Source: a virus (taxonomy: Duplodnaviria; Heunggongvirae; Uroviricota; Caudoviricetes). From it: a stretch of 64,000 nucleotides of DNA. Location: positions 12,925 through 76,924 of IMG/VR virus record IMGVR_UViG_2645727636_000004. The stretch is one strand, 5' to 3'. Shown here piece by piece: positions 231 through 62,910 of the stretch. Position 1 is the first letter of the stretch; each line of letters starts with the position of its first letter. The notes beneath the pieces are model-generated. The model searched no databases, was not told where the DNA came from, and worked only from the letters and a program-made list of their open reading frames with translations. Position numbers and translations under genes: made by a program.

Positions 231-253
231 AGTTGTATTATGTATTTTATTAA

Positions 254-1003
254 TTAAACGTACGAAAAAGTTGCTCTTTTAAGTAATGTGTTCTTCCCCG
301 CAGAAGCATCGATAGGAACTTTTGCAAATACAGTAACTTGTACAAAGTTTCCTCCTGCTAAATTTGCATTACTGCCATCGGCTTTAGTGTTGTTTGCTAG
401 CCCTAAAATTTCTTTTGCGTTTGGTTTTTTATCAATTTTAATAGCAACAAATTCGACTCCATTATCGAATACAGATTTTCCTTCTTCAGTAAGCCAACTT
501 GGTTCAGTTGCACCTGTTTCACCTGCATTGACAGCTTTGTAAATAAAACCATTATCAACAGTAGGTTTAACATACGCATCTATAGTTAATTTAGTTTCTT
601 TTATCCATACTGAAGCTGTACTTGAATGAATATTTGTAGTAGTTCCATTTGTACCTAAAAACTTCGTACCGGATGGATTTTCTGTCCCAACTCCACCTTT
701 GCCGACAGGAGTGAACACTTGTTCATTTAGACTATCAACCCTAGCTCTAAACCAGTTATCACGAACTGCCTCTACAATATTGCCTGCACTACTACCATCA
801 CCACCATTACGATCACGAGTAGTAAATTTAACATCTTCCATTTTTGAACAGTCTTTTGTACCTCCACGATTATTCCAGATAAAGTATGTTTTCTGAGGAG
901 AGTCTGAAAATGCATCTACCGTACCATAGTTAACTGTAGTTTTTACTTCTGTAGCTGTAGTATTTGTACCTTCGTACCAAGAAACTATAGGTCTTTCACT
1001 CAT
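254..1003 (-). CDS. Tail-associated structural protein with one CBM5/12-like module
   Basis: Tail cluster position; W..YVKPTVDNGFIYKAVNAGETGATEPSW module shared with 7224..7880. Confidence 0.6.
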   Translation of the reverse strand: MSERPIVSWYEGTNTTATEVKTTVNYGTVDAFSDSPQKTYFIWNNRGGTKDCSKMEDVKFTTRDRNGGDGSSAGNIVEAVRDNWFRARVDSLNEQVFTPVGKGGVGTENPSGTKFLGTNGTTTNIHSSTASVWIKETKLTIDAYVKPTVDNGFIYKAVNAGETGATEPSWLTEEGKSVFDNGVEFVAIKIDKKPNAKEILGLANNTKADGSNANLAGGNFVQVTVFAKVPIDASAGKNTLLKRATFSYV

Positions 1004-1057
1004 TAAAATTCCTTCTTTCTTATGTATTTATTTAAATAATAGTCATCTTTTATTAAA

Positions 1058-2218
1058 TTAATTTAGAGAGTCGTTCAATGCAATTTTCACATTCACAGTT
1101 AAAGTTTGAGCATCGACATTAAAAGAAGGGACGTATAATCTAAATACATCACCTTCTTTAACTTTTGTATTAATTAATTTAAATTCTTTATTGTTGCGAT
1201 GGTTATCTGCATCAATTGTTAGTGGGTTGTCTGTAACATCAACCCAATCTTTAAAATTCGAGGATTTCTGTATTTGAACTGGAGTAGGTTGTTGTCCTTT
1301 AAAAGAAACCTTTGCTTTAACATCGATTATTTCACCATCCCATTCAAACTCAAACTCTGGGTCTTGCACGCCTTGTAAAACATCTTTTGGAATAAAGAAT
1401 ACAATTGCTCTTTCATTAACAAATTTAGTTATATTTTTTACTTTGGTAAATTGTTCTTTGCTCATCAATCCATTAATAATTTCACTTGCAAGTGGGACAT
1501 TTCCACCAAGAGCATCAATAGGAGTCCATTCTTTTCCGTTCCATCTATAACGTATACCTGTATCAAATACTTGAGTTGTCCATCCAACCTCAGGGTAGGG
1601 GAATTTACTAGCAATTTCATCATATGTATTGACGTATGGCTGATAGATTAAGACTGTTGTTTCATAACCGTCCTTAACTAACTCTGCAGCATCATTAGCT
1701 TTTTGAGTAGCAATCAATGCTTGATCAGTTGCATGATTTGAATTATTTATAGCAATGACAAGATTGTTCAAATACTCTTCGTAATTATCCGTTCTATCAA
1801 TTAATTCTTGAACTTGTGATTTGCTTTTTTCTATGATTTCATGCAGCGTCTCTGTCGAATCAGATCCATCGTAATGTGCAATTCGAGTAGAAGGGTAGAG
1901 GATTAAACCTCTTCCTTTATATACTATTGACATTGTTTCAGCTTCTTTTGACACATGAAAGTAAACAAATCCATTTGTGTAATCTACGTAGAATTCATTT
2001 TTATCTAAGTTGTACTTCATAAACTTATCGTAGTTAATTTCAAACATACCTGTGATCCTTACCCTAAACATCTCATCAGGAATTTCTAATAAAAAGACAC
2101 GTTGATTCACTACACGAACAATATCTAAACGGTCTATAAATGGATCATTTGGCAATCCACTACGCCATAAGATATGAATAGGATTATTAAATTCTAAATA
2201 ATTTATAGGTAGTGACAA
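1058..2218 (-). CDS. Putative baseplate/tail fibre-associated protein
   Basis: 386 aa, central coiled coil, beta-rich C-terminus, directly after PAAR-like gene. Confidence 0.55.
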   Translation of the reverse strand: MSLPINYLEFNNPIHILWRSGLPNDPFIDRLDIVRVVNQRVFLLEIPDEMFRVRITGMFEINYDKFMKYNLDKNEFYVDYTNGFVYFHVSKEAETMSIVYKGRGLILYPSTRIAHYDGSDSTETLHEIIEKSKSQVQELIDRTDNYEEYLNNLVIAINNSNHATDQALIATQKANDAAELVKDGYETTVLIYQPYVNTYDEIASKFPYPEVGWTTQVFDTGIRYRWNGKEWTPIDALGGNVPLASEIINGLMSKEQFTKVKNITKFVNERAIVFFIPKDVLQGVQDPEFEFEWDGEIIDVKAKVSFKGQQPTPVQIQKSSNFKDWVDVTDNPLTIDADNHRNNKEFKLINTKVKEGDVFRLYVPSFNVDAQTLTVNVKIALNDSLN

Positions 2219-2233
2219 TTTATCACCTTCTTT

Positions 2234-2701
2234 CTATCCTCCAATATAAACATTAGCACTGAACCCATCTTTTACAGTTGTACTAGTATTTGCATGTGTT
2301 TGAATTGTAGAATCTTTAGTTGCTACTAAAACTCCGCCAATATAAACATTTTTACTGTTTCCACTGGACACTTTTCCATTAGCATTATTATGCTGTCCGC
2401 CTGCATAACGTTCATTCGATGACAGGCTATAAGAATCCGATTCAACTGTACTGTCTCCAAGTAGAGCAGGATTTTTCCCTTGAATAAATACATTGGATTG
2501 TTTTGCTTTTACAGTTCCATTAATCGTAGCGTTAGCACTATAGCCTCCAACCCAACTATAGACAGGTTCACGATTAGTACAATAGCCATCATCGTCCCAT
2601 GATGTACATTGAGTACCTGTCTGAATGTATCTTTCAGTACTAATGTGAGAGTTAGCAGTTGATTGATTTATAGATGCTCCATTTAGTGTAATCAAAGCCA
2701 T
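2234..2701 (-). CDS. PAAR-like spike-tip protein
   Basis: SNVFIQGKNPALLGDS, NVYIGGVLVATKDS and terminal SANVYIGG match PAAR repeats; directly follows the spike gene. Confidence 0.75.
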   Translation of the reverse strand: MALITLNGASINQSTANSHISTERYIQTGTQCTSWDDDGYCTNREPVYSWVGGYSANATINGTVKAKQSNVFIQGKNPALLGDSTVESDSYSLSSNERYAGGQHNNANGKVSSGNSKNVYIGGVLVATKDSTIQTHANTSTTVKDGFSANVYIGG

Positions 2702-2713
2702 ATAATAACCTCC

Positions 2714-5700
2714 TTAGTTAATGTCGATACGATTACCATTTATTTTTATACCATTAGTAGTCATAGATATTACATTGCTGCCAAAGGATAGTTCTAATTT
2801 AGAGTTATTCATTGTAATACTTCCACTACCGCCTTTGAGGGAAATAGTTCTAGGTGAATTAAGTTCTATAGATTTTTCTCTATCAGTTGTTAAGTTAACG
2901 GAATGTTTTTCACCATATTCGTCTACATACTCAGTAAAGAATCCATTTGGAGTTTTATATTGTTTAGCTTTATTATAATCAGTGTTAGCTCCCGAACCTG
3001 TACCCCAAATAGCAACAGGGTAGGCTTCCACACCAGAACCTTCAAAGTACATTTCGTATTTCGCTTGTTCTGATGAAGGATTTTTTAAATCAAATCTTGT
3101 CATAAATCTTAAGAATTTTTGTTTTATATGAACATAGTTGTAAGGATCATCCTTATCGTATGTTCTTAATCTCGTAACAGTTAAATCAGAAATAAAGCTA
3201 TCGTCCTTATCCAAAGACTCTAAAATAGATTCATCCAACTCACCGTTCATAATAAACAGTTTTCGTGCATACAAGTTTCCATCTTTATTTATCCAAAATC
3301 TAGGCTCTTTTTTTACGTCAATAGCTATGCCTTCGTTAGCATTTAGGCGAATTTGTTCACCGTTATTTCCATTGATAGTAATGCCTTTCTCATGGTCAAA
3401 GATAATCTTTTCACCTAGTTTACCATCAACAATTTTTAAATTATGAGTAGTAATGTCTTTAGCATATAATCTACCATCAATACCAACCCAAAACTTTTTA
3501 TCATTATTCACATGGATAGATATTCCGACATTACCGTTTAATCTAGTTACTGATTCTTTGACTCCATCTCCATCAGGATCACCAAAAATAGTAATACCAT
3601 CTTTCCAGTCAAGTATAATTGAGTCACCCAAATCACCATCAACAATACGAAGATTTTTTGTTACCAATCCTTCCGCATAAAGTGTGCCATCTTCCCATTT
3701 AGAGTCACCTAAAGTTGCAAATAGTTTACTAGTCCATTTCCCATTTTCCCATTTTTGAAGAGCTAAACCATTCGTTGCATTAAGGTACGCTCGATATTTA
3801 CCATCACTTCGAACAGCAATAAAACCAAAATCATTCATAATAAGATTATTGTTGTACGATCCCATTTGAATACCAGAGTAGAATAGGGAGTCTTCAATTG
3901 CTTGACGTAGACGAGTAGCTTCATCATAGTAATCTTTAAATTTCTGCACAAAAAAACCACGATCGTCAATTGAACTCGTGGATTCAGTAAGTGGGTCAGA
4001 CATATCTATATTTAAGCTTTCTGATTCTAAATAACCGTTATTTATGACTTTTATATAGTTTGAAATATAAGTCATTAACTCTAAGTAAGCATTTTTTAAA
4101 GCACTTGTTGAATATTTGTCAGTGGTAGAGTAAACGGTAGGGAAGGTTTGTGTTTTTGTATCAAATTCTGAATCTACATCAGTAACATTGTCTCTATCGC
4201 TTCTTATGTATTTCTGTGCTTGCTGAAGAAGTAATTTGTAATCGGAATGGATTTTATACAGCTCTTTAATCAACTCTAATTTTTCAAGTGTCGTCAATTT
4301 ACCATCAGCAACAATTTTATCAAATAAGCCAATATTAAAGTAATCATTCTCTGCGTCTAAGATGACTTCATCTAAATTATTTACAATTTTAATATTCTCA
4401 GCCACCATGTTTCGAGAATATAACGTACCATCTGTATTAGCCCACAATACCTTTTTCCAGTCATCGCCATCTTTTTTGCTAACTGAAAAACCTTCACATG
4501 TTGTCAGTGCAACTCTGGTGATATGATTCTGAGATACGAGTCCAAAACATTCGTTTTCTTGTGGAATTAAGTTTCCGTTTTCGTCTTTTTTGTTCTCTGA
4601 AACTAATCCTAAATGCATCACTTCATCACCATAACGATTATAAATTGTAGTCCTTGATCCTTGTGTTAGCCATATCCCTGATTCATCTTCGATAATTAAG
4701 TTGACTCCAGAAATTATTTTTCCGAAAATGCGCTCGCCAAATACGCCGTGTTTTGAAATTGCGTGCTTCCAAGACTGTCCATCATCATTAGTTATGGCTA
4801 AAAATCCGTTTTGAATAACAAGCCAACTTAAAGGATCTTCCAAGTCTCTCACAATAATCCCACGTTCACTTATTTCGATCTTCTGATTGTAACCTGCCAT
4901 TACAGCATTTTTTAAAGCATCCCATTCATTATTGATGATGTCATTGATAGCACCGTTATTCTCTTCAGATAAATTCCATTTCCACTTATCCATCTGGACT
5001 ATTGTGGAGGTATTACCTGCTTTATTTAATTGTTCTAACCAATTGTTACCTTCATCAAATTCATTTTCAATAACGACTGAGATACTTTCATTTTCAAAAT
5101 CATGAGTAATCTCAGTAATCTTTGCTTTAACATTTACTTGCAATCTATCATATCTAACTCTTATGATATCTCCTAAGCCTAATTTATCCCAATCATTTTG
5201 ACATTCAACTATAGATAGAAAATCAATTAAATTCATATCTAATTTTATTTTTGGTTCTAGATATTTTCTAAATACTTCATATCCTTCTTCAATCAAGTCT
5301 TCATCATCTACAATAGAGTCATTTGTATATTCCTTTTCAATTTCAAAATCTGATAACTCTTCTAATTGTTCAACAGTAAAATTATTCTCCCTAGCTAAAT
5401 GATCCCTCAAATCGTTTAATTCATCTTCATAATTAGCAAGTTGGTATCTTAATTCTCTAATGAATGCTTCTTGAGTTGATATTTCTGCTCTTTTTTCTTC
5501 TAATCTTTGGATAATATCCCGATGGTTATGGGAGGATGATTGAAAGTTAGCATTGGATAAATCTAATTCGTCCTCGATAATTATTCTTTGAGTATTCAAG
5601 GCGCTTAGTTTTTGTTCTTCTGTTTGAACTATAGATTTTTGCGTAGTGACCATTGTAGTTAAGTTGGTAAACTTCTCAGATAAAGATTCCACTAATACTT

Positions 5701-6556: not shown

Positions 6557-6573
6557 GTAATCATCACCTCATC

Positions 6574-7212: not shown

Positions 7213-7223
7213 TCTAAAAACTC

Positions 7224-7880: not shown

Positions 7881-7882
7881 AT

Positions 7883-15502: not shown

Positions 15503-15811
15503 CAAATATACCCTAGCTTTCGCTATATTTTAACACTTCACAAAGAAGTGGGAGTAGACTATACCATTAACTCATAATAAAAATCACCTTTAATCACATT
15601 CCACTGTTTAATAAGGTGATAAATAAAATATTTTTATGTATTTTTATTTGTTGATATCTTTTTATTTTCTTCACGTAAGAAAACATAATGCTTTTTAAAG
15701 CTTGTGAATAAAATGAGGTAGGGGACTTATATCTAGTGCAATTTATTTCAATTCACACATTTCATGTAGAAAGGACATATATATAATGTGTGATCCTTCT
15801 TTAAATCATAC

Positions 15812-19360: not shown

Positions 19361-19418
19361 AAAATAAAAAGAAGAAGGCAAGTGAAATATAATCACTCAA
19401 CTTCTTCTTTTTATTTTT
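19361..19418. terminator. Bidirectional terminator-like hairpin upstream of TMP
   Basis: AAAATAAAAAGAAGAAG.../...CTTCTTCTTTTTATTTT inverted repeat. Confidence 0.6.
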
Positions 19419-19494
19419 ATGTATTTAGTTTATAAATAAAAACCCTTCCAAATGAAAGGGAAAGCAGCTGCTGTATAAAATTGTCTTATGTATG

Positions 19495-22950: not shown

Positions 22951-23110
22951 TAATTCTCTCCTTTGATATTTGTGTATTTTTATAGATAAATTTTATCTAC
23001 AGTTAAATGTTAACATTTACGAATATCAAATTCAAGTATATTTTATGTATTTTATTAAATAAAATATTACAACCTAATCATTTGAGAGTAGGTTGTAATA
23101 TATATAGTAG

Positions 23111-24540: not shown

Positions 24541-24593
24541 TTTGAATAGGGAAGGTGAGATTAATTTTCTCACCTTTTTATGTATTTCGTATT

Positions 24594-25637: not shown

Positions 25638-25711
25638 AAATATTTACTCTCCTTTAAATTATGTATTTTATTAATTAGTAGATGTGAAGTAAAATTCTTA
25701 TCTACAATTTA

Positions 25712-25740: not shown

Positions 25741-25826
25741 GTTTAATTTATGTATTTTGTTATTTAATTTGTGATAATAAAAGACCCCTCCTCATTTAAT
25801 CAAGGTAGGGGAAGTGAAATGTAAAA

Positions 25827-26957: not shown

Positions 26958-28019
26958 TTACGTATTCAGACTGCCAAAGATATTATTCTTCTCTTCAGCG
27001 TGGTCACGTAAATCATAATGAGCAATCGTTGTAGCCACATTTTCGTGATGCGCTACGAATTTACTTACTAATTCTAACGGAACTCCTTGCTCTAATAAGT
27101 AAGTTACTGCACTAGCTTTAAACAAGTGAGGATTTATTCGTCTTTCAAGGATATGAGAAAGAACACTGGAGCATAAATAGTTAGCCCATCCTTCTTCTAC
27201 AACTTTAATCTCATCTCCATATTTTTTAGTGAAGATATACTCGTGGTCATATCCACGTTTTTCTAACCAAAGTTTTATGTATTTTAATGCTTCAAAGTTG
27301 ACCATATAAGGTTCAATTTTACCGTCTTCACCACGACCTTTTAAACGTACATTATGACTCATGATATATGTAGCATTTTCATCGATTTCATAAGTTGCTA
27401 TTTCAGACTTAAATTGAATAATTTCATTACGTCTAGCACCAGTGTTAAATGCTGTAGCTAACCAAGCCATTCCTAAATAATTCTCATCATCTTCTAAGAC
27501 TTTCATCATTTCAAGATATTCATCTTTTGTAATTTTAATCTTTTCATATACTGAACTTTTTGGAATAGCAGGTAATCCACGAGTAAAGTTTCTGAAATTT
27601 TTATATGGATTTTCTTCATCATCGTCAAAATCATCCATTACTACATTTTCTATATAGTTACATAAACTAGAAATAACTGCTTTACGAGTACCAATTGCGG
27701 AAGGAGACATTCTACGGTCATCTCGTAAATAAGACAAGTATCTAATGATATCTCTTTTCTTAATCTTATAAATAGGTTTGTTATTTAAGGAGGAACAAAT
27801 AAACCACCCGAATTGACGCAACATTGATAAATACTGTTTTTTAGTTTGAGGTGAGTGTGATTGAGATGCTATGTATTCGGAAACTAAATCTCTAAATTCT
27901 TTATTGACTTCATTCCACATTTCATCAGTTACTTCTGGTAATTTCTTTGCTCTGTCACGTAGCATATTCTTATTAATTTCAATTTCTTTACTGTTATCCT
28001 TTTCTGACAATATTACCAT
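26958..28019 (-). CDS. Tyrosine recombinase (YomM-like)
   Basis: TGARRNE (R), NPHLFKAS (HxxK), VAHHE, TTIAHYD (Y); syntenic with SPbeta yomM. Confidence 0.85.
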   Translation of the reverse strand: MVILSEKDNSKEIEINKNMLRDRAKKLPEVTDEMWNEVNKEFRDLVSEYIASQSHSPQTKKQYLSMLRQFGWFICSSLNNKPIYKIKKRDIIRYLSYLRDDRRMSPSAIGTRKAVISSLCNYIENVVMDDFDDDEENPYKNFRNFTRGLPAIPKSSVYEKIKITKDEYLEMMKVLEDDENYLGMAWLATAFNTGARRNEIIQFKSEIATYEIDENATYIMSHNVRLKGRGEDGKIEPYMVNFEALKYIKLWLEKRGYDHEYIFTKKYGDEIKVVEEGWANYLCSSVLSHILERRINPHLFKASAVTYLLEQGVPLELVSKFVAHHENVATTIAHYDLRDHAEEKNNIFGSLNT

Positions 28020-29326: not shown

Positions 29327-29405
29327 CTCTTCATTAGTTTGTATATTTATGTATTTGTTTTCGCAAATTTCTATCCAACCCCTTATTTCGTATTAACTTT
29401 GTATA

Positions 29406-30412: not shown

Positions 30413-30442
30413 ATTTATATTCTCCTTTTCTCCTCAAATAAT

Positions 30443-30473
30443 AAAAAAGAGAGTAGGGGATTTAGCCCTACTC
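30443..30473 (-). terminator. Terminator after tail tube gene
   Basis: GAGTAGGG/CCCTACTC stem plus U-tract. Confidence 0.7.
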
Positions 30474-30493
30474 ATTATTATGTATTTATTTAA

Positions 30494-35710: not shown

Positions 35711-35756
35711 AAGTTATTTTTCCACCTTTATTATTTATGTATTTTATTAATTATTT

Positions 35757-36221: not shown

Positions 36222-36269
36222 AAGTTATTTTTCCACCTTTATTTTATGTATTTTATTTATTAATTTTTA

Positions 36270-39441: not shown

Positions 39442-39473
39442 TTAACCCCTCCTTTCTTTATGTATTTATTTAA

Positions 39474-42797: not shown

Positions 42798-42840
42798 ATA
42801 CATCATTCCTTTATGTATTTTCATTCCTAAATAATAAAAA

Positions 42841-42906: not shown

Positions 42907-43129
42907 GATAAGCATCTCTACTTTATTGCACACCTATAAAGGAAAGGGGAGTAATCTGCATAGATGTGCTAAAAGGAGAGGTTCTATGAATAATCAATGA
43001 AAATAAAAACAAACGTTATGTATTTTATTAATTTAAATAAAATAACCGTTTTAACAAAATTTTTAGCTGCTGTATGTATATAAAAACTGAGAATCTAATA
43101 TCAAATATTAAGTTTTTCATATGTATCAC

Positions 43130-44997: not shown

Positions 44998-45143
44998 AAT
45001 TTTAATTTCTCCTTTTATCCATTTGATTTTTGTTTTATGTATTTAATTAATTTGACAGATTCATTCTCTATCATATATACTATTTGTCATCGTCGCTTGA
45101 AACCATTAGTATCATTGGGTTTGTTGGGTATAAGCAACGGTCG

Positions 45144-45947
45144 TTATTTTCTTTTATTATTATATCTGACATGTTTCTCCTTAATTTTTATAATTTTACA
45201 TGAATTACAATATTGATTTTTGTAGTTAGTGTTTCTAATTAAATTTCCACACTCAATACACTTTTTCACCTTCTTGCTTCCATAATAGTACTCATAAGCT
45301 AATCCAATATTGTCAAAGTCATTTACCTCAAATATAGTTTCCTCATCTTCCTCAATTTGATTTAAAAACAACAACTCTAAAGATAGTCGATTAGTAGTAC
45401 GAGTCAATCCATCATCATTAAATTGCTTAATTGTTCTATGTATTCCTTTTTCACGATATGTACGAGTTAGTTTTTCATTTAAAGTATCCATCAATGACTT
45501 ATAACTATATTCTCCAGAACCACCAAAATAGTTATTTTTAGAATCAATGCCTCGCATTTTTGCTCTAGCATTATTTAATTTGTTGATTATTAGCAATGAG
45601 AAAATAATCTTCTTTTCTAATTCTTCATATTTTAATGACTCAATAAATTCCATTTCTTTTTTCGTCACTTCAATTGATTCAATTTGAATTAATACACTGT
45701 CATCCTTTAAAGCATAAGTAATCGCATTATCAATCATCTTGTAATGCCTAACCTTATTGAACCAACCTTTACATTTCTTCTCACAAAACTCATACAGTGA
45801 TTTCTCGATAGCGTCTTTATCTTGACCAAGATGTTTGTAATACTTAGCTAAAGTTTTTAAATCACCTCTAATTCCAGTGTCTAATTTGTTCTTTTTCAAT
45901 AACTCTTCTATGTATTCTTTTTCTTTATAGTATTTATTCATACCCAT
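45144..45947 (-). CDS. RNAP-coupled hypothetical protein with C-terminal Zn ribbon
   Basis: Start overlaps RNAP stop; CIECG...YCNSC. Confidence 0.6.
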   Translation of the reverse strand: MGMNKYYKEKEYIEELLKKNKLDTGIRGDLKTLAKYYKHLGQDKDAIEKSLYEFCEKKCKGWFNKVRHYKMIDNAITYALKDDSVLIQIESIEVTKKEMEFIESLKYEELEKKIIFSLLIINKLNNARAKMRGIDSKNNYFGGSGEYSYKSLMDTLNEKLTRTYREKGIHRTIKQFNDDGLTRTTNRLSLELLFLNQIEEDEETIFEVNDFDNIGLAYEYYYGSKKVKKCIECGNLIRNTNYKNQYCNSCKIIKIKEKHVRYNNKRK

Positions 45948-48721
45948 TAAAACAATTCCACCTTTCTAACAGTATATTTTTTATTCAAATATTCAATTTC
46001 ACCATCTTCATCTTGGATAGGGAGGTATAAATAATCTTTATTACTTTTTAAATTATCAACAATCTCATCACCAAACAGTGACCACATTATATCTTTATTT
46101 GACGTTTTGTTATCAACACAGATCATATGAATCACGTAATTCATTAATTCTTTCTCGTTGTTACATACTCCAAGCAACTCAACCTTTAATCTTTCTCGAA
46201 CAATATTAATATCTTGTGCGACACTTTCATCATAGGTAGTTTTAACACTAACTTGTGTATTATTCATTTCATTTCTAATCATAGAGTTGAATTCTGAATA
46301 TTTCTTTTTCACTTTCTTATATGTATCTTGGTTAAACTTAATATCTTTATTCATGAACGATTCATAGTCATCAAACCATTCGTCGAGTTTCAGTAGTTTC
46401 TTTATTTCGAAATCAACCGACTCGATACGTTTGCAAATTTTATTCATTACACAATCAGATTCAATTACTGGTGATTTACGATAAAATTCATCTATGAAGT
46501 TTAATTGTTCGTCATTCATACGTTTAACGCTCTTTAGTTCAGTTAGGGTTATTCCTAATCGCTGTAATGATAAAATTTCATATTTCTTCACATGATCTTT
46601 GTATTTCTTTTTTGTATTACTGTATAGATGCATAAAGAAATAAGGGTGTTTATCAAGTAAAATCCTATTATTCAACTCTCGTTCATATCGTTCTTGTTCG
46701 GTTTCATCTTTAATGGGCAGTTGGTATTTTACCCATTTAGGGACTATACCTTTAACTTCTTGTCCAATTTTAGTTTTATCAATTTGAGCCGATTGAGCCT
46801 TAGTAATTGACTTGATTCTCCTAAGAGTGACTTTATACTCCTCAGATTCAGGAGATAGATTAGCTAGTAACGCATATCCAGAAGTTGATTTATTAGTTAG
46901 TCCTCCAATAATACTATTAAAACTAAATGTATCGGCATTATACAAATCGTTCTCAGTAGGAATCACCTTAGATGGTTTAGGTGCTTCATACACAACTGGT
47001 AATTCTTTACGATAAACTCCTTTGATTACTGATTTATCAGATGTAGTAGCGATGATATCATAATCAAAATCACTTCCTGCAAAACGATCAGTTTCATTGC
47101 CATGAGCATTTAAAATAATCCCACTGTAACAATATTTATACCACTTTTCGGTATCATCATTCTTAATTAGTTTCAGCAACACATGCTCACTACGATAGGT
47201 GAGGGGGCTGCGACTTGCTACAACTTCTTCGATGTTGAGATTATTCCAATAGTTACTGTAGTGTTCATCTTCGGCAAGCAAACCTTTCACTTCTTTTCCA
47301 CACACTGCCTCCATCATAGCAAAAGGGTCAGATACAATAACCTGAAAGTTACCATCAACAATTATTTGACCAATAGAAGCATTCTGAATCTTCTTTTTGA
47401 GCATATTATAAATTTTGTTTCTTATGTATTTATCTTTTATTAGCTTAGGTTCAACAATTAAAGCTTTAATCCAACTAGCGTTTTTACTGTTTAGGAACTG
47501 ATTAAATTTTTCTTCATTTGCATTCATTCCTACAAGAAATAGCATTGTGTAATACACATTCTCAGAAGTAACACCTTTGATCCACTTCACAAATTTATCT
47601 GTAATAGTAGCTACATCATTATCATCTAAGTTCAGTGTCTGTAAGAATTGATAATTTTGATAGAAGAATGTTTTATCATATTTAGGGGCATATATACTAA
47701 TGCCCCATGACATATTATTCTCCACACAACATTGACGGTAATGGTCAACAGAAGACCAACTATCCCACAATTTTAGCTGAGATTCGGTGATTATTACATC
47801 TACACATCTTAAATCAACCAACATTGGATTATCGCTATCGTCCTTATAAATAGACTCTATTATATAATTACCTTCATTAAATTCTTCAACCCATTCATGT
47901 ATATCAAATACAGTAAGCATTCCTTTGAGAAAACTGCCCCTAATGCAGAATTGTGATGGGATATAGTCAATTTCTAATTCCTTAGCCCATTTCTCAGCTT
48001 GTTTAGGAGATATCAATCCTTGACCATCGAAACGATTAAACATCTTTGTAATGGATTTTTCTTCAATTTCATCATCTTCGCTGTAATCTGTTTCAGTTAC
48101 AAAGTTGACATTGAATGAAGTTGGACTTTCAAAATCCTTCACTACACAGAAGTTAGGTGTAGTTACTTTATATCTAGAGCTACCATATAAGCCTCTGTAA
48201 GCATTTAATTTAGCAGGAGCAATAGGAACGATTTTATTCCTACCATTGTCAGTACGATACCTTAATTCATCAAATACAGTTTCTGCAATAAATAGGACAG
48301 TATTAACTCTTGCTTGAGAAGCACTGGAATTGAATCGTTTATATTTAACGCCATTAATTAGTACCCCTTTACTATATAATCTCTTGTATTGTGTTTTGTT
48401 GCTCATCTCGATAGTTATGTATTCTGGAACGTAAATTAACTCATTTAATTTTAGTTGTAAATCTTGAAGTTTCTCACCATTACCATCGTCACTGGTCGAA
48501 TTCTTCAATTTATGTATTTCTTTTTCTAAATATTTAAGCCTATTAACATCAATATGACGCTTAGTGATATCTAGAATCGTATCAATTAATTGATTCTCAA
48601 ATACCGCAATTAATTCTTTATTATCGATAGCCTCATCAATGTTAATACTAATATCATAGTTAAACTTTTTTAATCTATCTGATTCGAATTTCATTGTTAA
48701 GTATTGTATTTGTTTACGCAA
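45947..48721 (-). CDS. yonO: YonO-type single-subunit (two-barrel, RdRP-like) DNA-dependent RNA polymerase
   Basis: RFDGQG, FCIRGSFLKGML, RSPLT, GSDFDYD catalytic loop; same position as SPbeta yonO; start probably TTG/GTG. Confidence 0.9.
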   Translation of the reverse strand: MRKQIQYLTMKFESDRLKKFNYDISINIDEAIDNKELIAVFENQLIDTILDITKRHIDVNRLKYLEKEIHKLKNSTSDDGNGEKLQDLQLKLNELIYVPEYITIEMSNKTQYKRLYSKGVLINGVKYKRFNSSASQARVNTVLFIAETVFDELRYRTDNGRNKIVPIAPAKLNAYRGLYGSSRYKVTTPNFCVVKDFESPTSFNVNFVTETDYSEDDEIEEKSITKMFNRFDGQGLISPKQAEKWAKELEIDYIPSQFCIRGSFLKGMLTVFDIHEWVEEFNEGNYIIESIYKDDSDNPMLVDLRCVDVIITESQLKLWDSWSSVDHYRQCCVENNMSWGISIYAPKYDKTFFYQNYQFLQTLNLDDNDVATITDKFVKWIKGVTSENVYYTMLFLVGMNANEEKFNQFLNSKNASWIKALIVEPKLIKDKYIRNKIYNMLKKKIQNASIGQIIVDGNFQVIVSDPFAMMEAVCGKEVKGLLAEDEHYSNYWNNLNIEEVVASRSPLTYRSEHVLLKLIKNDDTEKWYKYCYSGIILNAHGNETDRFAGSDFDYDIIATTSDKSVIKGVYRKELPVVYEAPKPSKVIPTENDLYNADTFSFNSIIGGLTNKSTSGYALLANLSPESEEYKVTLRRIKSITKAQSAQIDKTKIGQEVKGIVPKWVKYQLPIKDETEQERYERELNNRILLDKHPYFFMHLYSNTKKKYKDHVKKYEILSLQRLGITLTELKSVKRMNDEQLNFIDEFYRKSPVIESDCVMNKICKRIESVDFEIKKLLKLDEWFDDYESFMNKDIKFNQDTYKKVKKKYSEFNSMIRNEMNNTQVSVKTTYDESVAQDINIVRERLKVELLGVCNNEKELMNYVIHMICVDNKTSNKDIMWSLFGDEIVDNLKSNKDYLYLPIQDEDGEIEYLNKKYTVRKVELF

Positions 48722-49878: not shown

Positions 49879-50121
49879 ATGAATCCTCCTATAAAATTAT
49901 GTATGTTATGTATCAGTATCCTCTTGGTTAGTATTTAATATAATTTTATGTATTTATTATATTAAATTTCAAGACTTAACTACGTACCACTTATGTATAC
50001 CTTTTTTAATTAATTCCAATTGATTTAACAAGGCTTTAAACTCTTCTAATAGTAAGTATCATTTCTGTTATAACAACACTGTATTAATTAGTAGCAATTT
50101 CATACTTCATATGTATTCCTA

Positions 50122-50400: not shown

Positions 50401-50742
50401 TTAAATTTAAAAACAATATTTTATGTATTTTGTTATTTAATTTGTGTTCTTGTTTATATAATACTGCGAAACTATCTAATCTACTAGTCAAATTACTAAA
50501 TAAATTTAATTAATAAAATACAAATTATTCATAAATAACAAATTTCTATTAATTGGTAAGAAATTTTGTCGAAACATGTAGAAATATACAGAATATCATT
50601 TCATTCCTATTTGGATTGTAGTATTATCTATTAATGAAGGATATGTCAGACCTTAAATTATATCTGACTTTTTTAACTTTATACTTGTAATTTATAGAAA
50701 AGTTTCCAATAATTATTGATATATAATTAGAAAGGGGAATGA

Positions 50743-53835: not shown

Positions 53836-53886
53836 CTTTTTTATTTTATGTATTTATGTTGCTCGAGGCAGTATATCTCCACTTAA

Positions 53887-54138: not shown

Positions 54139-54340
54139 AGTTACTCATCCTTTTCAATTTTATTTTATTCTTGCGAATGCGGAAGTGGAGCAGCTATACA
54201 TTGTATCAGCTCTAATTATATTCAAATATACAACAATCCTTTCTTATGTATTTATATCACTAATTGCATAATGACTAATCATAAGTGACAGTAACGTAAA
54301 AAGAAACCACTGGTGAGGTGGTTTTAAAATTTGTATTTAA

Positions 54341-54565: not shown

Positions 54566-54764
54566 TTTAATTTTCTCCTTTAGGTTTGATGCCGTGTTGC
54601 ATCTACAACCTTGTGAATGTTTTATGTAAATCTTTAACTTAAATATAGTATACCACGTAGTTCGGTTTATTACAACCACTTTATGTATTTTGTTAAATAA
54701 AAAAACTAAAAGAAAAGAGCAGCTAATTTTATTTAAGCTGCTCAAAATATTATAACTCTCATTT

Positions 54765-55166: not shown

Positions 55167-55558
55167 ACTTCACTTTTTCAACTCCTTTCCTTTAATATAA
55201 TTCTATTATATACCATAAATGCATAAAACACAATACTATTTATGTATTTTATTATTTAAAATTTAAACTAATTATACTTACTCAACTTGTAGACTCTATT
55301 ATTTTTAAATCTGATTCTATATTCTTCATCAGTCTTTTTAATCATTTCAATTACTTTTCCATTTATTATTTCTATTCCACGTAAACTTTCTTCTATATCA
55401 TCATTACATACGTTTATAAAATGTAACTACCCATTATGAAGCGGTTCACATTTCCACTTTTCAAATTTTAATTTTGTAGTAGGTAGTGGGGAGGTGGTTC
55501 TATATTTAATTTGCGAATAAATACACTTATGATGTACTTTACGTGTAATCATAGGCAA

Positions 55559-56987: not shown

Positions 56988-57032
56988 TATATGTATTTAT
57001 TTTTATAAAAAGCATATATTATAAAATCTTTT

Positions 57033-57519: not shown

Positions 57520-57816
57520 CCTCCAATTAATATATTTGTTAATACTTATTATACACTACTACAGATAAATTACAACTAGTTTTATGTATTTTATTAATTA
57601 ATTTTAGCGATTACAAATATGAACATCAAAATTGCTATAGCGTTGACAGATAAAGCTATCTTATAGAATGACACTTTGTCTTGTGGAGCATCTTCTGGAG
57701 TCCAAAAATAATTGTCAATTGTAGCTATACATTTTTGCATCAAGATTTAGTTCACCTCACTTTATGGATATGGTAGGGGACATACAATGAAATGGTTATA
57801 TCATTTAGTTTAAGTT

Positions 57817-58020: not shown

Positions 58021-58046
58021 TCTTAATTCACTCCAATTTATTTATT

Positions 58047-58226
58047 TTAATAACCGTCAATAATTGCATGTGCAATGTGATTATCTAACCATGTAGCATA
58101 ATTAAAGTTGGTCTCGTTATTGTTGTATTGATCTTTATATAAATTTATAGAAGATTCATAGTCACTAAATAAAGGCTCTAACATATTGTTCTGCATTACA
58201 TTTACAAATTGATTATACATACTCAT
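58047..58226 (-). CDS. 59-aa hypothetical protein (not in ORF track)
   Basis: ATGA overlap with upstream stop; MSMYNQFVNVMQ...HAIIDGY. Confidence 0.5.
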   Translation of the reverse strand: MSMYNQFVNVMQNNMLEPLFSDYESSINLYKDQYNNNETNFNYATWLDNHIAHAIIDGY

Positions 58227-58591
58227 TCATCAACAGCCTCCAATCCTGTTAATTCCCATAAAGAATCATCTACAAATGTACCAATAAACTTTTTACCACG
58301 ATGAATGGAAGTGGTATCAATTTTAAAATTCTCATCTATTTTATAATCATTAATCCCAACATAAATTACATTTTCGAATTCAGCCTTTGGATCAAGGAAG
58401 TAGTGTCCAATTTCATTACTGTATATATAGAATAATTCAGTTTGATTGTCTTTTAAGTTGTTCGTTTGAACATGAGTATATTTATTTGAAGTCTCTTTTA
58501 TTTCTTTAGCTAAGGTATCATTATTTGTAGCTGCTCCAGTGAATAGTGTAAAAGCTGTAACGACTGAAAGTAAAATATTTTTGATTTTCAT
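58223..58591 (-). CDS. Secreted protein
   Basis: Sec-type signal peptide MKIKNILLSVVTAFTLFTGAA. Confidence 0.65.
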   Translation of the reverse strand: MKIKNILLSVVTAFTLFTGAATNNDTLAKEIKETSNKYTHVQTNNLKDNQTELFYIYSNEIGHYFLDPKAEFENVIYVGINDYKIDENFKIDTTSIHRGKKFIGTFVDDSLWELTGLEAVDE

Positions 58592-58667
58592 AATTATTTA
58601 CCATCCTTTTTGTATTTTATTATTTTAATAGTAGGAAAAGAGGGAAGAAATTCCCTCCAATATTTAA

Positions 58668-59765
58668 TTAAGCAATTCGTACTGGTAAAATTAATTGCAT
58701 AGCTTTATTGTCATTAGATAGTGCAATAAATGGACGCATAGAACCAGTGAATTTAAATTGTGTATTTTCTTCATTAATTGCTTTTACTGCTTCATTTAAA
58801 TAAATAGCACTCATAGCAATTTTTAAATCTTCTCCAGTTTTTTCACCTTCGATATTTGCAGTCATTAATCCACTTTCAAAGCTTTCCGCTAACATTTCAA
58901 TTTTACCGTTTAACTGCATTTTTACGGCATGATTATGATCATCTTTGGCAATAGTTTTTAACATGTCAATTGACTCGACTAGTTGACTACTATTAATAAT
59001 TGCTTCTGTTCTAAAATCTTCTGGAATTAAGCGACTAAAATCTGGATAGTTACCTTCAATATTTTTAATGCATAGCTCCACATTGTCAAACTGAACTATT
59101 GTAAAATCTTGATTAAATCCAATTTCAATACTTTCAGTTTTCTTATTTAACATCTTTACAGATTTTTCAAGTGTTTTACCGTCAATAACTGTATCAATGT
59201 TATCTAATTGACTAGGCACTGTATAACGTCCTAATCTGTGCGAGTCAGTCGCTACAAAGTCGATATGGTTATAGTTGTCTGTACGTACACATACACCTTT
59301 TAAAACTGGTCTTGATTCGCTTTTAGCTACTGCAAAAGTTGTATTGTTAATCATGCGTCTATACTCGTTGACGTCCATTGTCATACGCTCATATTCAAGG
59401 CTAGGTAGTAAAGGATATTTGTTTGCATCTGTAAACATTAATTTATAATCAATGTTACTTGCTTTTATATTTGCCTTATTATCTACTAGCATATCAATTT
59501 CAATATCAAGTGCCTTTGATTTCTTTAAAAAGTCATTCAACTTCTTATATTCTAATACCAGTGATCCACTTGTTTCTGTTTGTAACGTATCGATCACTAC
59601 ACTTGCCATTGCATCTTGATTTCCTGCAATTAGTTGTAACGTGTTATTTTCTGTTGTTGTAATTTTTACACCAGATAGGATAGGTAGTTTTGTTTTACTG
59701 TCAATAAAATGTCCTAGCTTTTTAAGACCTTCTAATAATTCGATGCGATTAATTGTTGTTTTCAT
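58668..59765 (-). CDS. dnaN: DNA polymerase III beta sliding clamp
   Basis: LPILSGVKI, SESRPVLKGV, VATDSHRL, EGNYPDFSRLIP, LILPVRI. Confidence 0.93.
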   Translation of the reverse strand: MKTTINRIELLEGLKKLGHFIDSKTKLPILSGVKITTTENNTLQLIAGNQDAMASVVIDTLQTETSGSLVLEYKKLNDFLKKSKALDIEIDMLVDNKANIKASNIDYKLMFTDANKYPLLPSLEYERMTMDVNEYRRMINNTTFAVAKSESRPVLKGVCVRTDNYNHIDFVATDSHRLGRYTVPSQLDNIDTVIDGKTLEKSVKMLNKKTESIEIGFNQDFTIVQFDNVELCIKNIEGNYPDFSRLIPEDFRTEAIINSSQLVESIDMLKTIAKDDHNHAVKMQLNGKIEMLAESFESGLMTANIEGEKTGEDLKIAMSAIYLNEAVKAINEENTQFKFTGSMRPFIALSNDNKAMQLILPVRIA

Positions 59766-59880
59766 AATTAATATTCTCCTTTTGTTTATGTATTTTATTA
59801 TCTAATTTATTGTAGTCTAAATTCGGAATAAATACAAATTATTTTATGTATTTATTTATATAATATTTACTATTATGAAA

Positions 59881-60093
59881 TTAGACAGCTTTGTACCCAT
59901 TAATATAATGATTTGCATAATCCCACTTGTTTGTATCATAGTTAATTTCTAACGTTAATACTAAGCCATTTTCAAAAACTAAATCATGTTCATAGCTTTC
60001 ATGTGATTTTTCTTCTTTTTTAAGTTTTGCACCAATTTCTCTATTGCTTAATTCTAAATAGGCAGGTATTGACTTATAATTAATTTTTCTCAT
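59881..60093 (-). CDS. Small hypothetical protein
   Basis: GGAG RBS. Confidence 0.55.
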   Translation of the reverse strand: MRKINYKSIPAYLELSNREIGAKLKKEEKSHESYEHDLVFENGLVLTLEINYDTNKWDYANHYINGYKAV

Positions 60094-60146
60094 TTCTTAT
60101 ATTCTCCAATCTTTTTATTTTATAAAATACTGTTTTTAATTAAAGT

Positions 60147-60317
60147 TTATTTGTTTTTAAATCTTTCAATACTTTCAATCATTCGTTTTTCGTTCGCTTC
60201 TTTGTGTATATCATTCCACCTACACAATAAATTCCATGTAGTTTCAACCTCTGAATTTAAACCATTAAAACCATCCATAATTGAAAGTAATTCGCTTTGT
60301 TTTATTTCTATATTCAT
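60147..60317 (-). CDS. 56-aa hypothetical protein (not in ORF track)
   Basis: GGAG RBS; MNIEIKQSELL...IERFKNK; makes the + strand track ORF 60151..60339 redundant. Confidence 0.55.
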   Translation of the reverse strand: MNIEIKQSELLSIMDGFNGLNSEVETTWNLLCRWNDIHKEANEKRMIESIERFKNK

Positions 60318-60365
60318 TCTCCATACACCCTTTACTTGATTATTTTTATAAAATAGTATTTTTAA

Positions 60366-60839
60366 TTAAACTGCAGCACTAATTTTTCGTTCAGCTGTTG
60401 ATAAGATGCATTTAATATTGTTGATAGTTAAAGCCCAATTGCGAGCTAAAAGCTTGTTTCGCTTGTCAGTTAGCTTGTCATTAAGTTTTACCATTGCATC
60501 TGATAATAACTGTTTTACACTAGTTAATTGTTGTGTAGCTTGCTGATAATCTTCTTTAGCAGCTGATACCACACTAGAAGCTAATTCTTTAAAATATGAT
60601 ACAAGTTGTACTGTTGTTGAATTTTCAATTTCTAATTCATTGTTTTGTGTATTTTCTACTTTAACTTCTAACTTAGCTAATTCAGTGTAGTGATCTGTCA
60701 ACATTGTAATAATTTCACCTTTATGCATTTTGCGTTTTTCTTCACGGTTATACCATGCTAAACCTTCTTTATTTGCTGCTTCCTGCAACTCTTTAGCTTT
60801 CATAGTAGATAATACGCTGATTTTGTTTTGTAATTTCAT
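60366..60839 (-). CDS. Protein with Rho N-terminal-like (HeH) domain
   Basis: LSTMKAKELQEAANKEGL...KMHKGEIITML matches the Rho_N pattern; helical C-terminus. Confidence 0.6.
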   Translation of the reverse strand: MKLQNKISVLSTMKAKELQEAANKEGLAWYNREEKRKMHKGEIITMLTDHYTELAKLEVKVENTQNNELEIENSTTVQLVSYFKELASSVVSAAKEDYQQATQQLTSVKQLLSDAMVKLNDKLTDKRNKLLARNWALTINNIKCILSTAERKISAAV

Positions 60840-60875
60840 TTTAATTCTCTCCTAAGTGTATATGTATTTTGTGTT

Positions 60876-60940
60876 GCAACCTCCCTCAAGAAGAGGGAAC
60901 GCTCACAGCTTAATGCCTGTTTATACTCGCTGTGACGAGT
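60876..60940 (-). ncRNA. Pistol self-cleaving ribozyme
   Basis: P1 ACUCG/CGAGU; loop UCACAG pairs with CUGUGA; linker AUAAACAG; P2 GCA/UGC; UUAAG; GCG; P3 UUCCCUC/GAGGGAG; G^U site at 60880/60879. Confidence 0.88.
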
Positions 60941-60948
60941 TCGTTTGA

Positions 60949-61566
60949 CTATACGAATTTAATATTTAAAATCTGTTCTATTTCATTTAAAGAATTTCTT
61001 CCTAAATTTCTAACTTTCATCATTTCATCAAGAGTAGCATTTTTTACTTGTTGTACTGTGTTATATCCAGCACGTTTTAAACAGTTGAAAGAACGAATGG
61101 ATAATTCTAATACTTCAATTCCTTGGTTATTATCATTGTTTTGACTGATAATATTGATATACAAAGACATAAATTTATTTTCTAATTTTAAATTACGGTT
61201 TTCCTGTTCTTCTTTAGATAGATAGCCTACATGCCCATAATATTCAAAATCAGAAGCTTTAATAATAGCAACTAATTCATTTTGTACATACTCTTCTTTA
61301 GATGAAATTCGAGCAATTGTATCTTGAATTAATTCGCTGATACGTTTGGTATTGTCTGTGTCTACAAACTCACGAACAGCGAAGTATTCAACTTCTTCAT
61401 TTACTGGATTGAATGTTACGATAGTAGCGATAAATGAACGATCATATATAGTTTGACCGTACGAGTTGTGCTCTCTCGACGTGAAATCTACAGCCGATTG
61501 GATAGAATTTTTAAAACCCTTAGACGTAACAACCATAATATTTTCAGCAACATTAAATTTTTTCAT
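60949..61566 (-). CDS. Protein with C-terminal RNA polymerase alpha-CTD domain
   Basis: [25 protein letters not shown]...[15 protein letters not shown] closely matches the Bacillus RpoA CTD; N-terminal ~145 aa not RpoA-like. Confidence 0.85.
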
Positions 61567-61589
61567 TATATTTTCCTCCTATTAAGTAA

Positions 61590-61688
61590 GTACTTTATAA
61601 AATTACCTATGCTCGTGTCATCGCTACTTTGTTGCTTTGTACGCTCACTCGTTAGAGGTCTTGGCGACTAGGTGACTTTATAAAGTAC
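61590..61688 (-). ncRNA. Long hairpin enclosing a GC-rich structured core in the 5' leader
   Basis: ~20-bp stem GUACUUUAUAAAGUCACCUA/UAGGUAAUUUUAUAAAGUAC around a ~59-nt core. Confidence 0.55.
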
Positions 61689-61799
61689 TTATTTTTATGT
61701 ATTTTGTTATTTAAAGTGCAAGTCTTTCATAACTTAATTTCAAGTCTTAATTTTAATATTACTTGGAAGTAAGTTATTTTGTATTTCTTAACTGTCCTT

Positions 61800-61845
61800 A
61801 TATTACCATGTATAGATTATATTCGTCAATGGATTTTATGTATTT
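61800..61845 (-). promoter_or_regulatory. Strong sigA-type early promoter with upstream AAATACATAA box
   Basis: TTGACG-18-TAATAT with TG extension; box 6 nt upstream of -35. Confidence 0.7.
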
Positions 61846-62910
61846 TATTATTTAATTTTTATTGATCTGTTCAAAACGTTGATATTACAGTGTTTATTAG
61901 AAGCATAACATAAATTATTTTGAGTTTCTTCCTATTAAATGAGTAAAACTCAAAATGTGATCTTTACAAAAACAGCAAATGAGAACAAATATTTGCATAT
62001 GTGTTGGATCACATTCATATTCACAGGAATCAATTTAGATATTTAATCTTTCCTCAAATTTCAGAATAAAAATCTCTAATATATAACAGAAAGTGAAAAA
62101 TATCGCCACGACTTTTCCAGAAATCTCAAATGAAAAATTCATAATTAATAACAGCGTGCGGAGAATAGAGCTGAAATTTTTTCATGAATATATTTTGCTA
62201 GTGGTTTATCAAAAGTGGAAAGTTGATTTTAACATTGAGTTATTGGTGGTTGATGTACTTGTATGAACATAAGGAGGTTTAGAGGTAGTCGCATGTTACA
62301 TCTAATAAATTTCAATTTAGTGCAAATCTTGATGACTAATGTGAATTGAATAGGCTAAATAGTTAATTTCTACATTAATAAGAAGAGATTCATTAAGTTC
62401 TCTCTTTAAGAAATAAATAATAGGCAGCACCAGAGAAGTATTTACAGCCTCTTCGGATCATTTAAAGCTGTAAGTGTAGATTCAACGGAAGATGATTCGC
62501 CAACCTCTCTCTAATAAGAAACACGATTTTAAACCAATAAATAAGCAAAAATGGATGAAAAGTTAAAATTAAGTAGATTATTTTTAAAAAACACTTGTAT
62601 CTTACTTATAAGATATATATAATTTACTTATAGCTTACTTGTAAGTTAAATTTCTGAAAGAACTTAAAAGTATTGATGCACAAGAGTTTAATGAAGTTTA
62701 TTTGAAATAACCTAACAAAATTGCTGGTCTGTGAGTAGCTGATTTAACGAAGTAGATAACTAAAAAACACATATCACCCATTAATTAGTTATTGTTATTT
62801 CGAATGGAATATGAAAAATAATCCAATTTTCAGTTATACAAGTTAAGTTGATGTGATATACTTAAGAGGGGAAAATAAAATAACAAAATAAATAAAAAGG
62901 AGAACGGAAA

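Follow-up and report, generated by a model that had tools for sequence, protein, structure and literature searches.

The stretch of DNA analysed here (the window, 64,000 nucleotides) corresponds to bases 12925-76924 of a single 140,924-bp IMG/VR record (IMGVR_UViG_2645727636_000004; 30% G+C) and carries numerous copies of a short, strand-oriented intergenic sequence, hereafter the box, whose likely reader is the subject of this study. Comparison of the window with PHROGs and Pfam detected terminase, portal protein, tail proteins, and a YonO-type single-chain RNA polymerase (PF05183). Matches to SPbeta proteins in the complete genome included YomM (61%), YonK, YonN, and YonR. YopP-, YopQ-, and YopR-like genes were found in the SPbeta order at 107.6-111.0 kb of the genome, outside the window, and relatives of the YopR-like protein are present in Lysinibacillus genomes. 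On these grounds, the record is an SPbeta-like prophage of Lysinibacillus. A near-identity DNA search with 20 kb of the window gave no match in the phage collection. A survey of public sequencing runs returned one metagenomic DNA run, with a small share of matching sequence words, and no RNA run. Relatives of the phage, including G1 and G2 from IMG/VR, were gathered on the basis of similarity between repressor proteins.

Enrichment and orientation of the box

The 10-mer TTATGTATTT is present in 35 exact copies on the plus strand of the window and is absent from the minus strand, whereas dinucleotide-preserving shuffles of the window contain 1.29 copies on average and never more than 5. An earlier note on this DNA, based on the sequence alone, had reported more than 30 copies, all co-oriented with transcription, and no exact reverse copy. 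This description was accurate: all 31 positions that it listed were recovered and four additional copies exist (4204, 27275, 47422, and 48510). The complete 141-kb genome contains 71 exact copies of the 10-mer, the strand of which flips with gene direction. Read as AAATACATAA, 38 copies are located on the minus strand, all but two of them in the leftward gene arm (up to ~75 kb), and 33 on the plus strand, all in the rightward gene arm. The 10-mer is the commonest intergenic 10-mer. The earlier note had named loss of the enrichment under an AT-matched model of intergenic DNA as an outcome that would refute its inference. The enrichment was not lost: co-oriented intergenic DNA (16.1 kb, oriented by the flanking genes) contains 48 co-oriented copies and 1 reversed copy, versus 0.3-0.8 copies expected under Markov models of order 1-3 trained on this DNA after masking of the boxes. 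Both the enrichment of the 10-mer and its strand rule are real. Sites combining one core mismatch with a canonical flank add about two dozen copies, leading to a total of roughly 80-90 exact and degenerate boxes. About half of the co-oriented gaps of at least 50 bp hold a box, and none of the 25 predicted promoters pointing against their own arm has one.

Anatomy and conservation of the box

Alignment of the copies revealed information from position -11 to position +11 around the 10-mer, with the form WTTAAwwAAnA-AAATACATAA-aa. The box is one asymmetric unit of about 23 bp. The extended form originally proposed was roughly as found here, except that position -2 is mostly A or T rather than C or T. 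Comparison of 39 pairs of orthologous sites showed 92-100% identity in the core, 85-95% at positions -12 to -8, and ~78% in the flanks, and the phylogenetic footprint of the box spans about -12 to +10. Judging from these pairs, the box is under purifying selection at orthologous sites. The mean flank score was 6.2-7.6 in all three intergenic classes of boxes, versus 3.45 for random intergenic 11-mers. The 10-mers located inside genes are probably chance or non-functional copies since their mean flank score, 4.55, is lower than that of the intergenic classes. This is probably the case of the exact copies at 27275, 47422, and 48510, which have chance-like flanks and lie inside long open reading frames (ORFs). 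Two inverted exact boxes are found 13 bp apart at positions 100076 (+) and 100099 (-) of the genome; this pair is the only one of its kind and is kept in G1 and G2.

Genetic contexts of the box

Boxes were found in the three contexts that had been described previously, namely upstream from -35 elements, ahead of ribosome-binding sites, and between stop codons and terminators. In about 33 boxes, the core ends 10-24 nucleotides before a start codon and adjoins the ribosome-binding site, an arrangement that is kept even at long intergenic gaps; in six boxes the distance to the start codon is only 12-14 nucleotides. A high-scoring sigmaA-type promoter with its -35 element exactly 5-7 nucleotides past the core was present at 12 of 92 boxes. 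Any other single -35 offset between -70 and +59 was shared by at most 2 boxes, and most boxes have no adjacent promoter. In nine boxes, the TAA stop codon of the upstream gene is the TAA of the box TTAA, and at three such sites (238, 24578, and 30478) a hairpin and a T-run follow. Two pairs of boxes (50421/50373 and 59844/59786) sandwich a promoter, one member preceding the -35 element and the other covering the predicted start. The flipped variant signalled near position 62877 is AAATAAATAA at 62886-62895 on the plus strand, 15 nucleotides before the ATG codon at 62911.

The position of certain boxes bears on the level at which they act. No co-oriented gene is present in more than 10 kb upstream from the box at 61836, and the boxes at 23043 and 54681 are located between a terminator and a promoter. 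These three boxes would act at the DNA level because they should remain untranscribed unless terminators leak, and the fixed distance to the -35 element is itself a DNA-level feature. The proposal of the earlier note that the box acts on DNA or RNA may thus be narrowed: action would be on DNA at least for the boxes preceding the first early promoter or separating a terminator from a promoter, and action on RNA is retained only as an added layer involving the toxin MazF, which is considered below.

A candidate repressor of the MrpR/SroF family

MrpR of SPbeta, also referred to as YopR or SroF, has a tyrosine-recombinase fold and binds the repeated element SPBRE, as established by sequencing after affinity-based purification of chromatin (ChAP-seq, ten peaks), electrophoretic mobility shift assays, and reporters (PMC10516654). 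In the crystal, SroF of phi3T is a monomer that wraps a 26-bp box and reads 24 bp of it; the repressor is released by the SOS-controlled antirepressor Sar (bioRxiv 10.1101/2025.11.27.690993).

The YopR-like protein of the prophage (325 residues, genome 110047-111024, outside the window) matched PF22822 (MrpR_N_CB, the N-terminal core-binding domain of MrpR) with an E-value of 1.4e-15 and PF22823 with an E-value of 3.3e-5, which is below the Pfam cut-off; no match to PF00589 was detected at an E-value of 0.01. Among structures, it matched PDB entry 9RD5, the chain of which reads like phi3T SroF (2e-15), and the YopR/MrpR chains of SPbeta 8BJV, 8BJ6, and 8A0A (2e-9 to 6e-9). The gene is part of a syntenic yopP-yopQ-yopR cassette (sro/yopM-R type), and the repressor operon has a box of its own, followed after 7 nucleotides by a promoter, at position 107478 of the genome. 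The gene located just after the repressor gene encodes a 149-residue protein and has the strongest predicted promoter of the rightward arm, with no adjacent box. A LexA-like site, AGAACAAATGTTTG, is found there 10 nucleotides before a near-consensus promoter (TTGACA, 17 nucleotides, TAAAAT; genome 111169-111220, L004:11169-11220), and phi3T sar similarly has a LexA box upstream. The 149-residue protein is a candidate SOS-controlled antirepressor, although its sequence is unrelated to that of Sar.

Box type and repressor type across phages

G1 and G2 contain 62 and 56 copies of the same 10-mer, respectively, in which the flank and the change of strand are as in the prophage. In every locus encoding an MrpR-like protein 45-100% identical to that of the prophage, AAATACATAA was the top 10-mer, and all copies were forward except for single reversed copies in three loci. 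A different oriented motif was found in a locus encoding an MrpR-like protein 30% identical (L029), and SPbeta and phi3T, with repressors 22-26% identical, have their own boxes. The SroF protein of Bacillus phage BUCT082 is that of phi3T at 322 of 323 residues; BUCT082 contains 27 phi3T-type boxes and only 4 copies of AAATACATAA, which is the chance level. Comparison of these sequences is consistent with the prediction made for an operator, the box type changing with divergence of the repressor, but the correlation is confounded by overall relatedness.

The 15-mer TAAWAAAATACATAA was located in two Lysinibacillus genomes (4.8 and 5.3 Mb), and 31 of its 33 copies were inside the prophage. This phage specificity and the conservation at orthologous sites bear out the general inference of the earlier note, a genome-wide site for one phage factor.

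Other readers were considered. A host-factor regulon was rejected since the 15-mer is nearly confined to the prophage in the two host genomes. Two phage proteins, one containing the C-terminal domain of the RNA polymerase alpha subunit (alpha-CTD) and the other a YomM-like integrase, were rejected as readers since neither is found in G1 or G2, although the box is retained there. A role as a polar sequence oriented with replication or packaging was set aside because the box is confined to intergenic DNA and locked to -35 elements or ribosome-binding sites. Among the highly conserved proteins common to the three phages, Pfam revealed no obvious sequence-specific DNA-binding domain; the hits were to GmrSD_N, a zincin-like domain, YolD, and a ligase, and several of these proteins had no hit.

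The box as an operator of the MrpR/SroF-type repressor

As far as can be judged from sequence comparison, the boxes probably form an operator array of the SPBRE/Phi3TRE kind for an MrpR/SroF-type master repressor. Such a repressor is the likeliest reader of the box, which would make this a known system rather than a new one. The YopP-like integrase-fold protein of the cassette (67-74% conserved) may be a co-reader. In a lysogen, one monomer of the integrase-fold repressor of the MrpR/YopR/SroF family would wrap each box. At promoter-linked boxes, the bound repressor would block RNA polymerase from the -35/UP region or from the start site; between cistrons and before terminators, it would probably stop read-through transcription as a roadblock. 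All 141 kb of the prophage, with the late genes, would be kept silent in this manner, and an SOS-controlled antirepressor would bring about release. The one-way orientation of the boxes would be accounted for because a monomer reads a site that is asymmetric and has to be presented to RNA polymerase in one set geometry.

Re-derivation of the phi3T array supported this parallel. phi3T has about 30 matches to the crystallised SroF box, and their strand changes from one gene arm to the other. In the direction of the genes, these matches start with TTAA, and either the -35 element starts 1-2 nucleotides past the 26-bp box or a ribosome-binding site is directly next, several boxes having no adjacent promoter. 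The two phages therefore have in common an asymmetric, A-tract-rich box of 23-26 bp beginning with TTAA, present in dozens of co-oriented copies that adjoin a sigmaA -35 element or a ribosome-binding site, as well as a repressor gene that ends a yopP-yopQ-yopR-type cassette and a LexA-type box on a nearby small gene. The extent of the site is also similar, about 23 bp (-11 to +11) in the prophage and 24 of 26 bp read by monomeric SroF in phi3T. In contrast, the two repressors are 26% identical and the box sequences differ; the array comprises about 80-90 boxes in the prophage versus about 30 in phi3T, and runs through the late structural operon, in which phi3T has none. The core is far less degenerate than in phi3T and holds a MazF hexamer on the sense strand, and the lineage also encodes a sigma factor.

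SPBRE, as re-derived from the SPbeta genome, is present in about 11 copies, all pointing the same way as the gene downstream. The element either includes a sigmaA promoter (TAGACA, 17 nucleotides, TATAAT) or directly precedes a ribosome-binding site, as it does at yonX, yopM, and yopV, which are all ChAP-seq peaks. SPbeta and the prophage thus share an integrase-fold repressor of the same Pfam family and an intergenic repeated element that is co-oriented with genes and in some copies stands directly before ribosome-binding sites. However, SPBRE overlaps the promoter, whereas the box is upstream from the -35 element, and SPBRE is absent from the SPbeta late operon.

A similar layout is known from the stoperators of Cluster A mycobacteriophages such as L5, which are asymmetric repressor sites present in dozens of copies throughout the genome and co-oriented with transcription. 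Many of them are located within operons, where the bound repressor blocks elongation. Stoperators differ from the box in that they are 13-bp sites recognized by an unrelated repressor family (helix-turn-helix instead of integrase fold) in phages of unrelated hosts. We know of no roadblock activity shown for MrpR or SroF.

Several observations weigh against the assignment of the boxes to the MrpR/SroF-type repressor. Phages that share an identical box have MrpR-like proteins with no more than 45-53% identity. Most of the positions aligned to the base-contacting residues of phi3T SroF differ between the two types, in an alignment at 26% identity that may be off, the differences being mostly conservative (S/T, R/Q, V/I, N/Q, and S/N). 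Overall relatedness confounds the association of box and repressor, as the box-bearing phages also share other proteins, including a sigma-like factor. About 75% of the boxes keep all ten core bases, a tightness exceeding that of the phi3T boxes, which hints at an extra constraint. Finally, the late region, which has no boxes in SPbeta and phi3T, has more than 20 in the prophage, most of them lacking an adjacent promoter, and a repressor has no classical job at such sites.

If the assignment to an MrpR/SroF-type repressor is correct, a mode of silencing known so far from a few Bacillus subtilis phages also works in Lysinibacillus prophages, with an operator array three to eight times larger that covers the late genes. 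The lineage would then be suited to asking whether monomeric DNA-encircling repressors also act as elongation roadblocks. For annotation of this phage group, the box is a reliable sign of where genes start, where promoters lie, and which way transcripts run.

A MazF cleavage site in the core

MazF of B. subtilis cuts only UACAUA, a preference common to the MazF enzymes of Listeria and S. aureus (bioRxiv 10.64898/2026.08.06.743204). The transcribed core of the box, AAAUACAUAA, carries this strict site (U^ACAUA), and the single MazF of the Lysinibacillus host is nearly identical to EndoA of B. subtilis (E-value about 5e-56). In long genes, TACATA was observed 62-68 times on the sense strand versus 34-37 times in synonymous-codon shuffles (68 versus 36.6 in the prophage). 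Among the 4096 hexamers, its excess ranked first in the prophage and in G2, third in G1, and second in SPbeta; its reverse complement showed no excess.

An excess of MazF sites in the transcripts of phi3T and SPbeta has already been published (bioRxiv 10.1101/2023.04.27.537455). The motif is similarly enriched in the coding strands of the prophage, as re-found here with a stricter null and the 6-nucleotide site. In contrast to phi3T and SPbeta, the prophage also has the MazF site as the unvarying core of its intergenic box, which would put a cut site at the majority of gene junctions. We found no report of a MazF site as the fixed core of an intergenic box for phi3T or SPbeta.

We tentatively raise the possibility, which we hold to be a minor one, that the box is a two-layer silencer read as DNA by the integrase-fold repressor and cut as RNA by host MazF at the core U^ACAUA. 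A MazF site would then be present in the leader of most lytic cistrons or between them, and just ahead of several terminator hairpins. The strict co-orientation, the near-perfect 10-mer, and its constancy across repressors diverged to 45-51% identity would follow from a double constraint on DNA and RNA. The overlap of an operator core with a strict MazF cut site would connect two levels of the control of lysogeny, each of which has so far been investigated on its own in arbitrium phages.

We consider it unlikely that the box is mainly an RNA element, with host MazF or another RNA reader controlling every lytic transcript through U^ACAUA sites in 5' leaders, between cistrons, and before terminator hairpins. 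Such a role would account for the ratio of 48:1 in favor of co-orientation and for a core that stays invariant while repressors diverge. A 63-residue phage protein (genome 115041-115232, plus strand, outside the window) shows weak similarity to the C-terminal portion of YosL from SPbeta (26.7% over 45 residues, E-value 0.001). YosL is a reported MazF inhibitor. Most of the counterparts of the 63-residue protein in relatives carry a precomputed hit to MazE_antitoxin_C, a domain that was not found in the protein of the prophage itself with the local Pfam copy. However, MazF needs 6 nucleotides and not a conserved unit of 23 bp, boxes preceding the first early promoter or separating a terminator from a promoter should stay untranscribed, and the lock at 5-7 nucleotides from the -35 element has no RNA explanation. 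Moreover, degenerate boxes change the hexamer about as often as the flanking A residues (13 changes in 6 positions versus 11 in 4), and intragenic hexamers, which show no frame preference, lack box-like flanks. Finally, the phi3T box has no UACAUA and SPBRE has it on the antisense strand.

Promoter-type alternatives

The box might alternatively be a promoter element for a phage sigma-70-family protein associated with the host core RNA polymerase, in which case the majority of boxes would initiate middle or late transcripts immediately ahead of genes. We also regard this as improbable. The prophage does encode a candidate, a 208-residue protein matching Sigma70_r2 (2.7e-10; genome 115946-116572, plus strand, L004:15946-16572), that is ~50% conserved in relatives and has no counterpart in SPbeta; its relatives in the phage collection are only distant (25-42% identical over the matched part). 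Boxes stand just ahead of genes, late ones included, and their core is as invariant as a promoter -10 element. A search for a second promoter motif with the box masked yielded nothing but ribosome-binding sites, degenerate copies of the box, a recurring terminator stem, and TTTTATAAAA, leaving no other abundant phage-specific intergenic motif to serve as a sigma promoter. The architecture of the box argues in the opposite direction: it has no bipartite -35/-10 layout and nothing is conserved outside -12 to +11. Initiation downstream of the boxes located 12-14 nucleotides before a start codon would leave an mRNA without a ribosome-binding site, several boxes are directly followed by a terminator, and a fixed distance of 5-7 nucleotides to a sigmaA -35 element is not expected of independent tandem promoters. 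Box arrays are also present in phi3T, with the same layouts, and in SPbeta; SPbeta has no homologue of the sigma factor and phi3T was not searched for one.

It is highly improbable that the box is the promoter of the YonO-type single-chain RNA polymerase. The box does not follow YonO, because it is kept unchanged in G1 and G2, whose YonO-like proteins are 34% and 23% identical to that of the prophage, and is absent from BUCT082, which has the closest YonO (51%). Likewise, phi3T has an SPbeta-type YonO, so that phi3T and BUCT082 share boxes yet differ in YonO type. Early and replication genes are preceded by boxes as commonly as late genes are, and SPbeta YonO uses a single start site for the whole late operon (PMC5467207). 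The points in favor of this reading are the YonO-like gene at the head of the late region, the still unknown promoter sequence of YonO in SPbeta (PMC5467207), the size of the one-directional 23-bp unit, which is that of a promoter for a single-chain polymerase, and the possibility that a polymerase of this type reads through the terminator hairpins found after some boxes.

A UP-type element bound by the alpha-CTD of RNA polymerase, host- or phage-encoded, is hardly credible: the box is rich in A/T tracts and fills about -62 to -40 at 12 promoters, which is the UP-element position, and the phage encodes an alpha-CTD fusion protein, but box-keeping G1 and G2 lack that protein, the 15-mer is nearly absent from host chromosomes and so is not the host UP consensus, most boxes have no promoter beside them, and UP function does not need conservation of 10 of 10 bases.

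Distribution of the box in the window and neighboring genes

The boxes of the window and their adjacent signals are listed in Table 1.

Table 1. Boxes of the window. Coordinates are those of the 10-mer core; signals are given as sequence of the -35 element, spacing, and sequence of the -10 element where available.
Feature	Position in window	Strand	Adjacent signals and remarks
Core before first leftward early promoter	61836-61845	-	-35 TTGACG 6 nucleotides on, 18-nucleotide spacer, TAATAT
Core, 128 nucleotides ahead of start of alpha-CTD protein gene	61695-61704	-	
Core, upstream member of promoter-sandwiching pair	59844-59853	-	TTGTAT 6 nucleotides on, 17 nucleotides, TACAAT (by eye)
Core, 20 nucleotides ahead of dnaN-like start codon	59786-59795	-	Just past -10 of the promoter linked to 59844
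One-mismatch box AAATACAAAA, canonical flank	58608-58617	-	16 nucleotides ahead of start codon
Core and promoter	57582-57591	-	-35 TTGTAA 6 nucleotides on, -10 TATAAT
Core and promoter	55240-55249	-	-35 TTGTGT 6 nucleotides on, -10 TATAAT
Core, terminator hairpin upstream and promoter downstream	54681-54690	-	TTGTAA at +5, TATACT
Core, intergenic, no clear partner signal	54244-54253	-	
Core, weak flank, intergenic by eye	53846-53855	-	
Core past hairpin, 99 nucleotides ahead of next start codon	52549-52558	-	
Core, upstream pair member	50421-50430	-	TTGTTT 4-5 nucleotides on, -10 TATAAT (by eye)
Core, 17 nucleotides ahead of start codon	50373-50382	-	Overlaps predicted transcription start of the promoter linked to 50421
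Core, 67 nucleotides ahead of CoiA-like gene	49946-49955	-	
Core, 37 nucleotides ahead of HU-like (yonN-like) gene, head of late region	45035-45044	-	
Core, intergenic	43016-43025	-	
Core, intergenic	42811-42820	-	
Box at terminase-portal junction	39458-39467	-	Upstream stop inside TTAA; core ends 16 nucleotides before portal ATG
Core, 44 nucleotides ahead of late gene encoding 485 residues	37769-37778	-	
Core abutting ribosome-binding site, 22 nucleotides ahead of ATG	36244-36253	-	
Core abutting ribosome-binding site, 24 nucleotides ahead of ATG	35735-35744	-	
Stop codon inside box	30478-30487	-	Terminator hairpin and T-run next
Core ~20 nucleotides ahead of TTG start of HNH-endonuclease-like ORF	29347-29356	-	
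Core and promoter	25748-25757	-	-35 TTGAAT 7 nucleotides on, -10 TAGTAT
Core abutting ribosome-binding site, 21 nucleotides ahead of ATG	25659-25668	-	
Stop codon inside box	24578-24587	-	Terminator hairpin next
Core, terminator hairpin upstream and promoter downstream	23043-23052	-	TTGAAT at +7
Core 12 nucleotides past stop codon, 155 nucleotides ahead of next start codon	22017-22026	-	
Core, then long hairpin and T-run	19417-19426	-	
Core in non-coding stretch within tape-measure region	15634-15643	-	
Core abutting ribosome-binding site, 16 nucleotides ahead of ATG	1020-1029	-	
Stop codon inside box	238-247	-	Terminator hairpin next
One-mismatch box AAATAAATAA, canonical flank	62886-62895	+	Flipped with first rightward gene, 15 nucleotides before ATG
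Exact 10-mer inside ORF of 1280 residues	4204-4213	-	Chance-like flank, probably no functional box

Intergenic DNA has 5-7 occurrences of a terminator stem that includes TCCCCTACTCT, for example at 30440-30475 on the minus strand of the window.

Four genes on the minus strand of the window were also noted. The YonO-type polymerase gene (45947-48721) encodes 924 residues and contains two exact 10-mers; the closest relative of this polymerase in the phage collection is found in BUCT082 and not in SPbeta or phi3T. The first early operon encodes a DNA polymerase III beta clamp with all three domains (58668-59765), and the YomM-like tyrosine integrase gene (26958-28019) is located in the middle of the late region, beside an HNH endonuclease gene. 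The alpha-CTD protein (60949-61566, 205 residues) ends in the C-terminal domain of the RNA polymerase alpha subunit (PF03118, 2.3e-20), and a relative of the phage, L030, has a stand-alone alpha-CTD gene encoding 57 residues.

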